Below the pieces are notes generated by a model that ran no database searches, was not told where the DNA came from, and was given only the letters and a program-made list of their open reading frames with translations. The translations under genes were made by a program, and so were the position numbers. This document shows positions 16,798 to 26,758 of a stretch of 64,000 nucleotides of DNA, one piece after another (within the stretch, counting starts at the first letter, position 1; every line of letters begins with the position of its first letter). The stretch lies in sequence record PQ349265.1, one strand, 5' to 3'. Source of the DNA: Escherichia phage CJY920.

Positions 16798-18172
<1,375 letters not shown>

Positions 18173-18426
18173 TAATTGAGGCCTGAGTATAAGGTGACTT
18201 ATACTTGTAATCTATCTAAACGGGGAACCTCTCTAGTAGACAATCCCGTGCTAAATGTTCTTTTGAACTAAATGCCTAACGACTATCCCTTTGGGGAGTA
18301 GGGTCAAGTGACTCGAAACGATAGACAACTTGCTTTAACAAGTTGGAGATATAGTCTGATCTGCATGGTGACATGCAGCTGGATATAATTCCGGGGTAAG
18401 ATTAACGACCTTATCTGAACATAATG
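18173..18426 (+). ncRNA. group I self-splicing intron in td, ORF-less (about 254 nt)
   Basis: Starts TAATTGAGGCCTGAG..., contains core GTAGGGTCAAGTGACTCGAAA and GATATAGTCTGATCTGCATGG, ends ...CTGAACATAATG; no ORF inside. Confidence 0.8.
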
Positions 18427-18761: not shown

Positions 18762-19007
18762 ATGATTTTACGATTTAAAGATACTTCTGGTGTCGTTCTT
18801 TTTACACTTCCTAATCCAAGTGAGTTAGAAGTTCCAGGACCAAATCAGCCTATTATCATTTATGGCAAAAAATATTATACTCATAAAATGACTCGTGAGT
18901 ATTTTGATAATAAAATTTCTACGGTTAAAACTTCTTCAGATTGTTATTATGATATTACTGTTTTAACGGAAAAACAATATGACGAATGCAGAACTTTAGC
19001 AGTATAA
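18762..19007 (+). CDS. hypothetical protein (81 aa)
   Basis: ATG ORF; its 3' end overlaps the 3' end of the antisense GIY-YIG gene by 12 bp. Confidence 0.4.
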
Positions 19008-19727
19008 ATATGATTCCCAGCAATCTAGAGCGCATCTTTTAGATATAAGTTTTCTGCTTATTCCGGTTTGACGCACAGCTTCTGCTATTGTTGGATATTC
19101 TACCCCATCTATACTTACTCTTAGATGGGGTTTCTTTTTACCTCTTTGTGAGTCAGAAATTCGTTTTCTAACTTCATTGGTATGTGTCTGTCCATAATAT
19201 GGATTATTGATGCCTTTCATATTAAGTGCAGCGTTTCTTTCTTGGAACTTTTTGCTTATTTCTATAGCACGATCTAACCCATAGTGTTCTTCTATAGTTT
19301 TACCTTTGATATCTCTAGGTCTACCATGTTTTTGCTTAAGTTCTTCTGGTGATAATTTTGAATTATTATTTTTAATTGCATTTGAAATTTTATTAAGGAT
19401 TTCTTGCTTTCTTGGGTGATGAGATAAGGTATCCCCAAATGATGCGTCTGCTATATTATACCCATTTTCCTTTGAGTCATATTCATGCATCCAATAATTT
19501 TCACGTTCAATAATGATAGATTTTTCGTATGGAAGTTCTTCTATGATTTTACATACGAAAGCATCTTTCCCATGCTTATTATAAGAACGCTGCAGCTTTA
19601 TTGAATGATGATTTCCATTATCTAAATCTTTAAAGTGTCGTTTCCATCGTTCTTCAAAATTAATTGCACTTCCTATATAGTGCTTATTAGTTTTAGTGTT
19701 TATAATAGCATATATTCCAGATTTCAT
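18996..19727 (-). CDS. GIY-YIG homing endonuclease, I-TevI-like catalytic domain (243 aa), free-standing and antisense
   Basis: N-terminus [35 protein letters not shown]... closely resembles the I-TevI GIY-YIG domain as recalled; C-terminal HTH-like [21 protein letters not shown]; own TATAAATA and AGGAGA upstream. Confidence 0.8.
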
Positions 19728-19749
19728 TATATTCTCCTATATAAAATTA

Positions 19750-19757
19750 TATTTATA
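19750..19757 (-). promoter_or_regulatory. late promoter TATAAATA for the GIY-YIG endonuclease gene
   Basis: Plus-strand TATTTATA is TATAAATA on the minus strand, about 22 nt upstream of the ATG. Confidence 0.6.
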
Positions 19758-19782
19758 TGGGGTAACTTACGACAGAGGACTT

Positions 19783-22047
19783 ATGCAATTAATTAATGTT
19801 ATCAAAAGTAGTGGTGTTTCTCAGAGCTTTGACCCGCAAAAAATTATTAAAGTTTTATCTTGGGCAGCTGAAGGAACATCTGTAGATCCTTATGAATTAT
19901 ATGAAAATATTAAATCATATCTCCGTGATGGAATGACAACTGATGACATTCAAACCATTGTAATTAAGGCTGCTGCGAATTCTATTTCAGTTGAAGAGCC
20001 TGATTATCAATACGTAGCTGCACGCTGTTTAATGTTTGCTCTTCGTAAACACGTGTACGGACAGTATGAGCCCCGTTCATTTATTGACCATATTTCTTAC
20101 TGTGTAAATGAAGGTAAATACGACCCTGAACTGTTGTCAAAATATTCAGCAGAAGAAATTACATTTTTAGAATCAAAAATTAAGCACGAACGGGATATGG
20201 AATTTACTTATTCCGGGGCGATGCAATTAAAAGAAAAATATCTCGTTAAAGATAAAACCACTGGTCAAATTTATGAAACTCCACAGTTTGCATTTATGAC
20301 TATTGGAATGGCATTGCATCAAGATGAACCTGTTGACAGATTAAAACATGTTATTCGTTTTTATGAAGCAGTATCTACTCGACAGATTTCATTGCCAACT
20401 CCTATTATGGCTGGTTGTCGTACTCCGACTCGGCAATTTAGTTCATGCGTTGTTATTGAGGCAGGTGATTCGCTGAAGTCTATCAACAAAGCTTCTGCTT
20501 CAATTGTTGAGTATATTTCTAAACGAGCCGGAATCGGCATTAACGTTGGTATGATTCGTGCCGAAGGTTCTAAGATTGGCACAGGTGAAGTACGCCATAC
20601 TGGTGTTATTCCTTTTTGGAAACATTTTCAGACTGCTGTTAAATCATGCTCACAGGGTGGAATTCGTGGCGGCGCTGCTACTGCTTATTATCCTATTTGG
20701 CATTTGGAAGTTGAAAATCTTCTCGTTTTGAAAAATAACAAAGGCGTAGAAGAAAACCGTATCCGTCATATGGATTATGGTGTCCAGCTGAATGATTTGA
20801 TGATGGAACGTTTTGGAAAGAACGATTACATTACTTTGTTTAGTCCACATGAAATGGGTGGCGAACTTTATTATTCTTATTTTAAAGACCAAGACCGTTT
20901 CCGTGAATTATACGAAGCTGCAGAAAAAGACCCTAATATTCGTAAAAAGCGCATTAAAGCCCGTGAACTGTTTGAATTGCTCATGACTGAACGCTCAGGA
21001 ACAGCAAGGATTTATGTACAGTTCATTGATAATACGAATAACTATACTCCATTTATTCGTGAAAAGGCACCTATTCGTCAGAGTAACTTGTGCTGTGAAA
21101 TTGCTATTCCAACAAATGATGTGAATGGACCTGACGCTGAAGTGGGCCTCTGCACTCTTTCTGCCTTTGTTCTTGATAACTTCGATTGGCAAGACCAAGA
21201 TAAAATTAATGAATTAGCAGAAGTCCAAGTTCGCGCTCTTGATAATCTTTTGGATTACCAAGGATATCCAGTTCCTGAAGCAGAAAAAGCTAAAAAGCGT
21301 CGAAATCTTGGTGTAGGTGTTACTAACTATGCAGCTTGGCTGGCAAGTAACTTTGCTTCTTATGAAGATGCTAACGATTTAACACATGAACTATTTGAGA
21401 GATTACAGTATGGGCTCATTAAAGCATCCATTAAGCTCGCCAAAGAAAAAGGACCTTGCGAATATTATTCAGACACTCGTTGGTCTCGAGACGAATTACC
21501 TATCGACTGGTACAATAAAAAGATTGACCAAATCGCAGCTCCAAAATACGTTTGTGACTGGTCGTCGCTGCGGGAAGACCTTAAGCTCTTTGGCATCCGT
21601 AATAGCACATTATCAGCACTTATGCCATGTGAGTCATCTTCCCAAGTTTCTAACAGTACAAACGGTATCGAGCCTCCACGTGGACCAGTCTCGGTTAAAG
21701 AATCAAAAGAGGGTTCCTTTAATCAAGTCGTGCCCAATATTGAACATAACATAGACCTCTATGATTATACATGGAAATTAGCTAAGAAAGGTAATAAACC
21801 TTATCTTACGCAGGTAGCTATTATGCTTAAATGGGTATGTCAATCAGCTTCAGCGAATACATATTATGACCCGCAGATTTTTCCAAAAGGAAAGGTTCCA
21901 ATGTCTGTAATGATTGATGACATGCTATACGGATGGTATTATGGCATTAAAAACTTCTATTATCATAATACTCGTGATGGTTCCGGTACTGATGATTACG
22001 AAATAGAAACTCCAAAAGCTGAAGATTGTTCATCCTGTAAATTATGA
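19783..22047 (+). CDS. nrdA: ribonucleotide reductase large subunit (754 aa)
   Basis: From ATG 19783 (SD GAGGA): MQLINVIKSSGVSQSFDPQKI...; class Ia RNR alpha motifs; the ORF-track N-terminal extension from 19696 is rejected. Confidence 0.9.
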   Translation: MQLINVIKSSGVSQSFDPQKIIKVLSWAAEGTSVDPYELYENIKSYLRDGMTTDDIQTIVIKAAANSISVEEPDYQYVAARCLMFALRKHVYGQYEPRSFIDHISYCVNEGKYDPELLSKYSAEEITFLESKIKHERDMEFTYSGAMQLKEKYLVKDKTTGQIYETPQFAFMTIGMALHQDEPVDRLKHVIRFYEAVSTRQISLPTPIMAGCRTPTRQFSSCVVIEAGDSLKSINKASASIVEYISKRAGIGINVGMIRAEGSKIGTGEVRHTGVIPFWKHFQTAVKSCSQGGIRGGAATAYYPIWHLEVENLLVLKNNKGVEENRIRHMDYGVQLNDLMMERFGKNDYITLFSPHEMGGELYYSYFKDQDRFRELYEAAEKDPNIRKKRIKARELFELLMTERSGTARIYVQFIDNTNNYTPFIREKAPIRQSNLCCEIAIPTNDVNGPDAEVGLCTLSAFVLDNFDWQDQDKINELAEVQVRALDNLLDYQGYPVPEAEKAKKRRNLGVGVTNYAAWLASNFASYEDANDLTHELFERLQYGLIKASIKLAKEKGPCEYYSDTRWSRDELPIDWYNKKIDQIAAPKYVCDWSSLREDLKLFGIRNSTLSALMPCESSSQVSNSTNGIEPPRGPVSVKESKEGSFNQVVPNIEHNIDLYDYTWKLAKKGNKPYLTQVAIMLKWVCQSASANTYYDPQIFPKGKVPMSVMIDDMLYGWYYGIKNFYYHNTRDGSGTDDYEIETPKAEDCSSCKL

Positions 22048-22063
22048 TATAATTACCACAAGG

Positions 22064-23656
22064 ATGTGGTTAACTAAGAATAACGCTATGTTTGATAATA
22101 TATACAAAAACGGAAAGTTTCTTCCATTTGGAGAAGAAAAACTTAAATCTAGACTAACAGAAGAAGATAAAGCTCTTCTAACTGATGGAATAGATTTTAA
22201 GCTCAATGTGTTCCAAATTATGGAAGGCATTGACATTAACGATCTAAAATGTGCAGTTTGTGGAAATTTCATTTCTCTGAAAACAGCAAAGAAACGTGTA
22301 TTTCCAGCAACATGTAGTAAATCCTGCTCAGGGATATTTTTCGCGGATAAGAGAATTCAAAGCCGTGATACAAATTTTGGCGGAAAAGAAAAATATAAAA
22401 AATATTTGTCTGAACTTCAACACAAAAATTCTTTAGAAAAATATGGAACAACTCATCAAAAAATTTCAAGAAATAAAAATAGAAAAACTTTAATTGAACG
22501 ATATGGGGTAACGCATAATTCACAATTAGAAAGTGTGAAAGAAGCGAGAAAAGTTATAGAAAACGGTAAATCAGTTGATATTCTGAATTCTAAAAAATCT
22601 CGCGAAAAATCTAAGAAGACTAAATTAAATTGGACTGAAGAATATAAGGCATCGTTATATTCATCTATAGGAAAATCTATTAAAAATAACGGTCATATTA
22701 ATCATGATATACTAGATAAAATCAATTACAAAATTTCTATAGAAGAACTACAACAATTAGCAAATTGTTCTCGGATGACGGCTTATAGAGCTCTTTCATC
22801 CAAAGGACTAATTGACGTTCATTATACTCAAAGTTCTATAGAGCAATTCATTTTAGATCTAGGATTTGATTGCGTAGAAACTAGAAAAATTATTCCTCCG
22901 TATGAATTAGATATTTACATTCCTGAGAAAAAATTGGCTATAGAATACGATGGAATTTATTGGCATTCTAGCGGGTCAAAGGAAACAGATAAAATTAAAG
23001 AAACTTATCATTTGATGAAGACAGAGATGTGTGAAGCACAAGGAATTCAATTACTTCACATCTTCGAAAATGAATGGATTGATGATACAAAAAGAGAGAT
23101 CTGGAAATCCATTATAAAGCATAAATTAGGATTATCAGAAAGAATACCAGCCCGAAAATGCAAAGCACGGTTTGTTAATAAGGATGAGGCAAAAGAATTT
23201 ATTAATAAGAATCATCTTCAAGGATTTTGCTCAGGAGCTCATACGTATAAAGGACTTTATTACAATAATGAGTTAGTTCAAATTATTTCTATCGGTAAAT
23301 CTAGATATAGCTCAGGTGATGAACTTTTAAGGATGTGTTCAAAATTAGGGGTTTGTGTTGTAGGAGGAGCCTCAAAATTATTAAAAGGAATTAATTGTCT
23401 ATCTTATGGCAATCGAAGATGGTGCAGTACATTATCAAATGTTTATGACTCTGTCATGGAATTTAGTCATATCTCTGAGCCATGTTATTGGTACGTCGAT
23501 AAAGGAGAGGTATTTCACCGCTCAAGCTATATGAAACATAAGCTTAAAAACAAGCTTAAAAATTATGATGATACAATAACTGAAGTAGAAAATTGTTATG
23601 CAAATGGTCTTAGAAGAATCTGGGACTGTGGAAATTTAGTTTACAGGACAAAATAA
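22064..23656 (+). CDS. putative free-standing homing endonuclease (530 aa): zinc-finger-like N-terminus, tandem YG-TH repeats, Vsr/DUF559-like nuclease core
   Basis: Cys cluster CAVCGNF...CSKSCSG; repeats EKYGTTHQKIS / ERYGVTHNSQ; core PYELDIYIPEKKLAIEYDGIYWHS...GIQLLHIFENEW resembles DUF559/Vsr-type PD-(D/E)xK nucleases; sits at the nrdA-nrdB position where T4 has mobE. Confidence 0.55.
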   Translation: MWLTKNNAMFDNIYKNGKFLPFGEEKLKSRLTEEDKALLTDGIDFKLNVFQIMEGIDINDLKCAVCGNFISLKTAKKRVFPATCSKSCSGIFFADKRIQSRDTNFGGKEKYKKYLSELQHKNSLEKYGTTHQKISRNKNRKTLIERYGVTHNSQLESVKEARKVIENGKSVDILNSKKSREKSKKTKLNWTEEYKASLYSSIGKSIKNNGHINHDILDKINYKISIEELQQLANCSRMTAYRALSSKGLIDVHYTQSSIEQFILDLGFDCVETRKIIPPYELDIYIPEKKLAIEYDGIYWHSSGSKETDKIKETYHLMKTEMCEAQGIQLLHIFENEWIDDTKREIWKSIIKHKLGLSERIPARKCKARFVNKDEAKEFINKNHLQGFCSGAHTYKGLYYNNELVQIISIGKSRYSSGDELLRMCSKLGVCVVGGASKLLKGINCLSYGNRRWCSTLSNVYDSVMEFSHISEPCYWYVDKGEVFHRSSYMKHKLKNKLKNYDDTITEVENCYANGLRRIWDCGNLVYRTK

Positions 23657-24331
23657 TGAGTACAGTTTTTAATACTAAACAGGTCGATGTTTTAAAAGAA
23701 CCTATGTTTTTTGGTTCAGGTCTTGGTATTGCGCGTTATGATATTCAACGGCATCGAGTATTTGAAGAACTTATTGAACGTTCGCTCTCGTTTTTCTGGC
23801 GTCCGGAAGAAGTAAACTTGATGATGGATGCTGCACAGTTTAATAAGCTTCCTCAGTATCAACAAAATATTTTTACTAATAATCTGAAGTATCAATCATT
23901 ACTTGATAGTATTCAAGGTCGTGCGCCGTCTGCTGTACTTATGCCATTGCTTTCAGACCCAAGCCTTGATACATGGGTTGCTACATGGACTTTTAGTGAA
24001 ACTATTCACAGTCGTTCATATACTCATATCATGCGAAATCTTTATACTGATCCATCGAAGGTATTTGATGAGATTGTACTAGATGAAGCTATCATGAAAC
24101 GTGCTGAATCTATCGGTCGCTATTATGATGATGTTCTGACTAAAACCCGTGAATGGGAAAATGCTAAAGAATTTACAGAACTAGCTAAAGAATCTCCTGA
24201 TGCTGTTTTTCGTTTAAATCGAGCTATTAAACAAGAAGCCGAAGCTAAACGTGCTTTAATGAAATCTCTTTACCTCTGTTTGCATGTTATCAACGCATTG
24301 GAAGCTATTCGTTTTTATGTATCTTTCGCGT
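23656..24331 (+). CDS. nrdB: ribonucleotide reductase small subunit, exon 1
   Basis: ...NALEAIRFYVSFA then T of a split Cys codon; R2 signature as in E. coli NrdB. Confidence 0.85.
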
Positions 24332-24640
24332 AAAATGCGCCTTTAAGCAGTAATGCTTATCGAAAACTCCTTTAATTGCTGGAAAATCCAGAAATGGAAA
24401 ACTAGCAGCCAAGGTTTTGCTTGCACCTTTAATTAGTATCATATTATAAATATGATTATACTTTTAAGAGGATGCACAATTGCAAAGCAAGGTTCAACGA
24501 CTAGTCTTCGGACGTAGGGTCAAGCGACTCGAAATGGGGAGAATCCCTCTGGGATTGTGATATAGTCTGGTCTGCATAGTAATATGTAGCAGTTCATAAG
24601 AGAACGGGTTGAGAATTAGCGAGCTCAATCGAACATAACG
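24332..24640 (+). ncRNA. group I self-splicing intron in nrdB, ORF-less (about 309 nt; boundaries within a few nt)
   Basis: Core GTAGGGTCAAGCGACTCGAAA and GATATAGTCTGGTCTGCAT paralogous to the td intron core; ends ...GAACATAACG; no ORF inside. Confidence 0.7.
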
Positions 24641-25143
24641 GTACCTTTAACTTCCATAAGAACATGGAAATCATGGAAGGTAATGCCAAGATTATGAAGT
24701 TCATTGCTCGTGATGAACAGCTTCACCTTAAGGGTACCCAATATATTATTCGTCAACTTCAATCCGGTACTGATGGTGATGAATGGGTTAAAATTGCTCA
24801 AGAGTGTGAACAAGAAGCAGTTGATATTTTCATGGAAGTTAACCGTCAAGAAAAAGACTGGGCAGTTCATTTATTTAAAGATGGTGATGTTCCTGGATTA
24901 AATACAAATAGCATGTGGAGCTTTATTGATTACTTAACTGTATCTCGTATGAAACAGTGTGGTCTTCCATGCCCAATTACCGATGCTCCGGTTAAACATC
25001 CATATCCTTGGATTCGTGAATACCTTAATTCTGATAATGTTCAATCCGCGCCACAAGAAGTAGAACTATCATCTTACCTTGTAGCACAGATTGATAATGA
25101 TGTTGATGATAAAGTTATGATGAGTTTTAAAAAATATTTTTAA
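24641..25143 (+). CDS. nrdB: ribonucleotide reductase small subunit, exon 2
   Basis: Splice restores [36 protein letters not shown]..., homologous to E. coli [24 protein letters not shown]... Confidence 0.85.
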
Positions 25144-25170
25144 GGAGTGGGCCGCAAGGCCCATTTTATT

Positions 25171-25173
<3 letters not shown>
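25141..25173 (+). promoter_or_regulatory. SD (AGGAG) - GNRA hairpin - AUG arrangement at denA (split RBS and/or nrdB terminator)
   Basis: AGGAG 25143-47, hairpin TGGGCC-GCAA-GGCCCA 25148-63, TTTTATT, ATG 25171. Confidence 0.5.

Positions 25174-26758
<1,585 letters not shown>

Follow-up and report, generated by a model that had tools for sequence, protein, structure and literature searches.

The nrdB gene of Escherichia phage CJY920 is interrupted by a 309-nt group I intron that contains no endonuclease ORF. This is very probably the IA2-type intron known from nrdB of T-even phages (the T4/RB3/U5 family), which has here lost its homing-endonuclease gene, I-TevIII. The same ORF-less allele is already in GenBank, where it has gone unrecognized.

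Intron boundaries and exons

The window (the whole 64-kb stretch of sequence record PQ349265.1 that we analyzed) is a T4-like (Tequatrovirus) segment with the gene order frd, td, a small ORF, a reverse-strand GIY-YIG gene, nrdA, hef, nrdB, denA, and rnlA. The nearest public genomes are LH2, N2, ESh36, and SG1, with about 95-96% identity over 24 kb. Two of the mechanically called ORFs, 25147-25581 and 19696-22047, are longer than the real genes. The start of denA is probably the ATG at 25171, which gives a 411-nt coding sequence as in its relatives, and for nrdA the likely start is the ATG of MQLINVIK... instead of the GTG at 19696.

The original prediction, which was made from the reading frame and sequence motifs, placed an intron at roughly 24332-24640. 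These boundaries are exact to the base, as judged both from the frame of the exons and from phage N2 (ON645936.1, 138246-139424), which has an uninterrupted nrdB of 1179 nt. When nrdB from N2 is aligned with positions 23656-25143 of the window, the intron is the sole internal gap. As had been noted, nrdB reads into a stop codon in frame after ...FYVSFA: this TAA (24331-24333) is completed by the first two bases of the intron, which begins with AAAATGCGCC and ends with ...GAACATAACG. Removing the intron restores the R2 frame, and the Cys codon that was expected to be split across the junction is formed from the last T of exon 1 and the first GT of exon 2 (TGT). The predicted ligated exons read ...TTCGCGT/GTACCTTT..., and conceptual joining gives a protein that reads ...FYVSFA-C-TFNFHKNMEIMEGNAKI....

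The joined NrdB has 392 amino acids and aligns end to end and without gaps to R2 of Escherichia coli (E = 2.6e-128; FYVSFAC/TFNF versus FYVSFACSFAF at the junction). It is 96.9% identical to NrdB of RB3 and 92.8% identical to NrdB of T4. The insertion site, after the first base of the Cys codon of FYVSFAC, is that of the T-even nrdB introns, and the exon contexts are identical to those of T4, RB3, U5, and SG1. Within 100 nt on either side of the junction, every difference among the alleles that we compared is synonymous. By these comparisons, both exons are intact and appear to be under purifying selection. Overall, the sequences argue for an intron that splices and for a functional nrdB.

Table 1. 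Coordinates of the features discussed in the text (positions within the window).
Feature	Position	Strand	Remarks
td group I intron, ORF-less	18173-18426	+	254 nt; RF00028 match 18163-18378, 75.7 bits
Motif GTAGGGTCAAG[CT]GACTCGAAA	18298 and 24514		td and nrdB introns
Motif GATATAGTCTG.TCTGCAT	18348 and 24559		td and nrdB introns
Motif GAACATAA[CT]G	18417 and 24631		td and nrdB introns
hef, free-standing homing-endonuclease gene	22064-23656	+	530 codons; 528/530 identical to U5 Hef ABI48935
nrdB exon 1	23656-24331	+	676 nt: 225 codons plus T of the split Cys codon
nrdB group I (IA2-type) intron without endonuclease ORF	24332-24640	+	RF00028; alignment with T4, RB3, and U5; gap in N2
P1	24328-24340	+	Exon GCGU plus intron A (24328-24332) with UGCGC (24336-24340); fold
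P2 hairpin AAGCA-GUAA-UGCUU	24345-24358	+	3/5 pairs with compensatory changes among alleles
P3, 5' strand CUCCUU	24367-24372	+	Partner GGGGAG, 24536-24541; invariant, 100% paired
P4 (UGCUGG/CUAGCA) around P5 (UCCA-GAAA-UGGA)	24377-24407	+	Fold and allele alignment
Extended P6 arm (P6, P6a, P6b, P6c, AT-rich apical hairpin)	24408-24493	+	Minimum free energy (MFE) fold; former site of the I-TevIII gene
TATAAATA, match to T4 late-promoter consensus	24445-24452	+	Relic; same element upstream of I-TevIII in RB3 and T4
GAGG, Shine-Dalgarno of lost I-TevIII	24468-24471	+	Paired within P6c; 8 nt upstream of TTG
ACAATTG, single copy left (deletion scar)	24476-24482	+	Last three bases are the former TTG start, 24480-24482
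Residual 26-codon ORF from old TTG	24480-24560	+	Out of frame across P6'-P8; presumed meaningless
P7, 5' strand GACUA	24499-24503	+	Partner UAGUC, 24563-24567; 5/5 pairs invariant, 100% paired
P7.1 (GUC-UUCG-GAC)	24504-24513	+	Fold; extra hairpin of subgroup IA2
P7.2 (GGGUC-AAGC-GACUC)	24517-24530	+	Extra hairpin of subgroup IA2; one compensatory U-A to C-G in DCP80
P8 hairpin AUCCC-UCU-GGGAU	24543-24555	+	Fold and allele alignment
P9	24572-24589	+	One compensatory pair
P9.1	24592-24605	+	Fold and allele alignment
P9.2	24608-24629	+	Two compensatory pairs
Terminal G (omega-G), 3' splice site	24640	+	Conserved in all alleles
nrdB exon 2	24641-25143	+	Opens GTACC; GT finishes the Cys codon; stop codon included

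A conserved group I ribozyme

A covariance-model scan and a comparison with the nrdB intron of T4 had been proposed as checks, and both gave the expected family. Positions 24313-24589 match RF00028 (Intron_gpI) with 71.7 bits (the gathering score is 50; E = 3.1e-16), covering model positions 1-253 of 253. Nothing else in the 64-kb window reaches an Rfam gathering score, apart from the td intron. The intron is 93.9% identical to that of T4 over their common parts; across T4, RB3, U5, and SG1, these identities are 92-95%, with homology along the whole ribozyme. The core junction sequences agree with the Rfam consensus. Also, both P7.1 and P7.2 are found between P7 and the 3' strand of P3, which places the intron in subgroup IA2. 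An MFE fold gives the same local hairpins (-86 kcal/mol, z = -2.5).

We counted base pairs in an alignment of ten distinct alleles from which the ORF segments had been removed (17 helices with 90 pairs). Standard pairs are formed in 98.2% of the cells. Eight pairs have changed on both sides: three in P2, two in P9.2, and one in each of P5, P7.2, and P9. As a control, we slid the 3' partners by 1-3 columns; 31-46% of the cells then paired, with zero compensatory pairs. None of 500 shuffles attained the observed pairing values. P1 keeps 5/5 pairs in 10/10 alleles, including the wobble pair at the 5' splice site (U24331.G24337). The closing pair of P5 is U-A, A-U, or G-C in different alleles. In the P6 arm, where Rfam sets a 70-nt insertion, one-sided changes preserve pairing. 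P3, P4, and P7, which belong to the core, do not vary among the alleles, so covariation neither supports nor contradicts them. By analogy with other group I introns, P7 should hold the guanosine-binding site.

The differences that are specific to the window in P2 and P5 (relative to RB3) and in P9 (relative to T4) are all compensatory pairs, which suggests that selection for folding has continued. More broadly, eight compensatory pairs across ten alleles argue that splicing has been maintained. We infer that the intron is self-splicing. The nrdB transcript would fold into the standard P1-P9.2 core, and exogenous guanosine would attack after U24331, in the U.G pair of P1. The freed end of exon 1 would then attack after the terminal G, which would join the exons, form the TGT codon, and allow functional full-length NrdB (R2) to be made.

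We also considered P10, which we rejected: the loop of P1 is only AAA, with essentially no complementarity to the start of exon 2. P10 is essentially absent from the other aligned alleles as well, T4 included.

Probable remnants of I-TevIII

The original prediction described the intron as lacking an endonuclease ORF, and indeed its longest internal ORFs on the + strand encode just 21-27 amino acids. An HNH homing-endonuclease ORF inside the intron, as expected for a mobile intron, is absent. When we compared I-TevIII from RB3 to the window with tblastn, only its last ~15 residues were matched (24460-24498, E = 0.46).

In the alignment, the intron corresponds to the RB3 intron minus positions 142-926 (785 nt), which encode residues ~2-259 of I-TevIII. 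In RB3, a direct repeat of 7 nt (ACAATTG) bounds this segment. The annotated TTG start codon of I-TevIII is part of the first copy, and the second copy lies 10 codons before the stop codon. We propose that ~785 nt were lost between the two copies of ACAATTG that flank the coding segment. This event would have taken all of I-TevIII except for the last ~10 codons, and it would have left the late promoter, the Shine-Dalgarno sequence, and the TTG in place (Table 1). It would also have brought the strands of P6a and P6b together, as one compact and continuous hairpin arm. Promoters for the ORFs of T-even introns have been described (PMC2988022). Since a late promoter, a Shine-Dalgarno sequence, and a TTG codon would serve nothing without a gene to express, we regard the ORF-less state as most likely derived instead of ancestral.

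Two short ORFs at the junction, the 26-codon ORF from the old TTG and a 10-codon ATG ORF (MHNCKARFND), were rejected as by-products of the fusion. Compared with the exon junction (24329-24331 plus 24641-24657), positions 24422-24438 resemble the putative operator site of I-TevIII (PMC2988022). This site appears to have outlasted the gene. In P6, the AT-rich apical loop (24436-24461), which includes the late promoter, is hypervariable, with indels of 3-11 nt in TATAA-like units; this is probably due to replication slippage. The TATAAATA consensus is missing from U5, SP21535, and SG1.

One deletion junction in six alleles

We aligned the intron with those of RB3, U5, T4, SG1, DCP80, PD112, CE1, BYEP01, and SP21535 (Table 2). 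At least three other deletions within I-TevIII are evident, each with a different microhomology of 5-7 nt. (The aligner placed the junction for T4 6 nt away; we took this to be the same 491-nt deletion with a point change.)

Table 2. Lengths of nrdB introns, state of I-TevIII, and deletions relative to RB3.
Phage	Intron length	I-TevIII	Deletion	Microhomology
RB3	1091 nt	Complete (269 aa)		
U5	1083 nt	No large deletion relative to RB3		
T4	598 nt	Defunct relic	491 nt (also ESh36 and G8-like)	GAAGA
AV109			504 nt	AAGAACA
SG1	420 nt	Mostly deleted	664 nt	AGATG
Window, DCP80	309 nt	Absent	785 nt	ACAATTG
PD112, CE1, BYEP01	304 nt	Absent	785 nt	ACAATTG
SP21535	300 nt	Absent	785 nt	ACAATTG

About 126 public phage records cover this part of the intron, and five phages among them have the ORF-less form (six records, as PD112 was deposited twice). 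In all five (PD112, CE1, BYEP01, SP21535, and DCP80), the junction is identical to that of the window, GAGGATGC-ACAATTG-CAAAG. The sequences around the junction vary. Outside of the missing segment (783 nt in these alignments), the intron of SP21535 agrees with that of U5. The introns of PD112, CE1, and BYEP01 match RB3 except for the deletion and the loss of 2 nt from a loop, with one more substitution in BYEP01. The intron in the window combines a 5' half of the SG1 type with a 3' half of the RB3 type, and it shares its P6 apical loop only with DCP80, a Gaprivervirus whose allele is the most divergent of the ORF-less ones. The six ORF-less alleles thus represent at least four sequence backgrounds of the ribozyme, from two genera.

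RB3 has other direct repeats of 7-8 nt that could remove most of the ORF. Since these went unused, recurrent slippage alone does not explain why six alleles have one junction. Judging from the sequences, the common junction points to one deletion that was followed by spread and recombination, or else to a hot spot that was favored by selection. As for the haplotypes that flank the deletion, the P6 loop is hypervariable via slippage, and T4-type phages recombine freely.

The deletion junction had no match among metagenome contigs from IMG/VR and JGI, where T4-like coliphages are too few to give a prevalence. A more general pattern for the nrdB intron matched one contig in IMG/VR (a 592-nt form) and one in the JGI metagenomes.

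None of the five public ORF-less introns is annotated as an intron. In PD112, CE1, BYEP01, and SP21535, nrdB is annotated as two coding sequences, with the intron unmarked, and in CE1 the coding sequence for exon 2 (URG13164.1) is labeled as "major capsid protein." The record for DCP80 (PQ671644.1) is only 141 kb. It contains the ORF-less intron and exon 2, with about 205 nt upstream, and then an inverted DNA primase gene, which points to rearrangement, to a deletion mutant, or to misassembly.

Alternative explanations

If the ORF-less form were the ancestral, empty state, and I-TevIII had invaded it later (with ACAATTG either duplicated or already present at the insertion point), then a single junction in six alleles, on at least four backgrounds and in two genera, would need no recurrent identical deletions. 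It would also be no surprise that repeats of equal or greater length in RB3 went unused. It is an accepted idea that endonuclease ORFs invade introns, reportedly put forward by Loizos et al. in 1994. But a promoter consensus, a Shine-Dalgarno sequence, and a TTG codon at the correct spacing make sense only as relics of a gene that was expressed. Also, the ORF-less alleles are interleaved with ORF-containing alleles instead of being basal (SP21535 is close to U5, and PD112 differs from RB3 by only 2 nt besides the deletion), and at least three further deletions at microhomologies have hit this ORF. We consider an ancestral empty intron to be improbable.

We think it even less likely that the insertion no longer splices and is decaying, with nrdB a pseudogene in a phage that relies on the ribonucleotide reductase of its host. 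The nrd genes of T4 are dispensable on normal hosts, and the public annotations do show the gene as two fragments. However, the exons are intact and show purifying selection, as all of the differences near the junction are synonymous. Every helix of the ribozyme is intact, the substitutions in P2, P5, and P9 are compensatory, and the core junction sequences fit the Rfam consensus. We give almost no credence to an artifact of assembly or sequencing in which the I-TevIII region collapsed between repeats. The junction does lie in a short direct repeat, where assemblers or PCR occasionally create deletions, but an assembly would not collapse on a repeat of only 7 nt. Moreover, the same junction was found in five genomes that were sequenced independently, by different laboratories, with different flanking polymorphisms. 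Loss of I-TevIII from a T-even nrdB intron that still splices is the explanation that we favor.

Potential for mobilization by Hef

Without I-TevIII, the intron cannot initiate its own homing. It would persist since nothing short of an exact excision could restore nrdB. It might still spread passively, by co-conversion when the adjacent nuclease Hef cuts the nrdB gene of a co-infecting phage, or because I-TevIII is supplied in trans.

The hef gene is directly upstream of nrdB and ends where nrdB starts, and the insertion site of the intron is 676 nt past the stop codon of hef. Thus, a free-standing nuclease gene lies within recombination distance of an intron that lacks an endonuclease, which is the arrangement expected for trans (or collaborative) homing. 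Collaborative homing is exemplified by the psbA intron of cyanophages and the nuclease F-CphI. According to a review, Hef of U5 cleaves nrdB (PMC2988022). In T4, the free-standing nuclease MobE drives the inheritance of the defunct nrdB intron by co-conversion, which was termed "trans homing" (PMC2790892). As in these systems (T4 nrdB with MobE, and psbA with F-CphI), the intron in the window lacks an endonuclease and is ~0.7 kb from a free-standing nuclease gene that targets the same host gene. The differences from trans homing by MobE are that the neighbor in the window is Hef and that mobilization is only hypothesized. By analogy, it is plausible that Hef mobilizes the nrdB intron in trans.

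In PD112, CE1, and BYEP01, which carry the ORF-less intron, hef is missing, and nrdA and nrdB have no endonuclease gene between them. This implies that linkage to Hef is not necessary for the intron to persist.

Hef belongs to a Vsr-like family (PMC3239194). In Pfam, the hef product has only a sub-threshold hit, to the Vsr-like REase_MTES_1575 (22 bits, with a cut-off of 38.2). In U5, hef is annotated with a start 14 codons farther upstream, within the end of nrdA.

Phage N2 has a hef region that is nearly the same as in the window (about 3-4 mismatches in 1.8 kb). Mismatches between N2 and the window cluster beside the insertion site, with 10 sites upstream (24252-24330) and 5 sites downstream (24708-24738). 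These clusters resemble a co-conversion tract. The last full codon before the insertion site is GCA in N2 and GCG in the window; GCA would weaken P1. This genome and N2 form a natural pair, with and without the intron, that have the same hef and could be used for a direct test of trans homing.

The td intron of the same genome

The original prediction noted a resemblance between the core of the nrdB intron and the td intron of the same genome. The two are homologous, with 61% identity over 239 aligned columns and identical blocks of 21, 19, and 10 nt. Each of the three motifs that had been listed as common to both introns (Table 1) has exactly two occurrences in the 64-kb window, one in either intron.

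In T4, the td intron is 1016 nt. The short form of the td intron that is present in the window is also found in N2, CE1, PD112, BYEP01, GRNsp7, and HMD-9; of these, CE1, PD112, and BYEP01 carry it together with the ORF-less nrdB intron. Between td and nrdA, there is a free-standing I-TevI-like gene of the GIY-YIG type (18996-19727, reverse strand, 243 amino acids). Its product has GIY-YIG and NUMOD3 domains above the Pfam cut-offs, and I-TevI_DNA-bd falls just below (21.4 versus 27 bits). It is 46% identical to I-TevI of T4, 100% identical to its counterpart in N2, and 91% identical to that of Klebsiella phage Merci. In collaborative homing, this nuclease could serve as partner to the ORF-less td intron.

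A broader idea is that a single deletion allele of the nrdB intron has become a successful non-autonomous element, which has spread across Tequatrovirus and Gaprivervirus by hitchhiking on nearby free-standing nucleases (Hef, for example) or on I-TevIII from co-infecting phages, and that the td intron of this genome has done likewise with the adjacent I-TevI-like gene. We view this as unlikely, if far from negligible. If true, it would mean that introns and endonucleases can act as separated partners in nature.

Comparison with known introns

According to a 2010 review, each of the three T-even introns carries an endonuclease gene of its own (PMC2993671). In the literature that we searched, we found no description of a natural ORF-less nrdB intron in T-even phages; the survey of Sandegren and Sjoberg from 2004 was outside this search. 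That survey, along with Sandegren et al. from 2005, is said to describe Hef and the distribution of T-even introns.

The ORF-less allele extends the natural decay series of a classic phage intron, from 1091 to 598 to 420 to 309 nt and no ORF. Each step occurred at a short microhomology, and the series illustrates the cycle of invasion, degeneration, and loss of homing endonucleases. Selection would preserve the ribozyme, since imprecise removal is not an option. Recognizing the intron also corrects the annotations that split nrdB into two "partial" coding sequences.

The td intron of this genome has a homologous IA2 core (with identical blocks in J8/7-P7, P7.2, and the 3' terminus), belongs to the same Rfam family, and is also ORF-less. 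It differs in its host gene (thymidylate synthase) and in the sequences of P1-P6, and its P6 is much shorter. The ancestral endonucleases differ as well: I-TevI (GIY-YIG) for td and I-TevIII (HNH) for nrdB.

The nrdB introns of RB3 and U5 have the same insertion site, ribozyme, and P1-P9.2 architecture, and their 3' 165 nt are 100% identical to the window. The promoter, Shine-Dalgarno, and TTG signals of the P6 arm are shared as well, except that U5 lacks the promoter consensus. In contrast to these introns, the intron in the window lacks 785 nt, and its 5' half has SG1-type variants of P2 and P5, which are compensatory. The nrdB intron of T4, in which Eddy and Gold reportedly found a defunct I-TevIII in 1991, is likewise a natural deletion derivative of the RB3 type that cannot home by itself. 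However, T4 lost 491 nt inside the ORF, at GAAGA, and a relic of 97 codons remains, whereas the intron in the window lost the whole ORF, at another junction. The five public ORF-less introns are 93.5-94.8% identical to the window overall. They differ from it in P2, P5, and the P6 loop, and DCP80 differs in P7.2, P9, and P9.2 as well. Decay of this sort is already known for such introns, and the ORF-less form is where it would be expected to end; it does not represent a new type of element.
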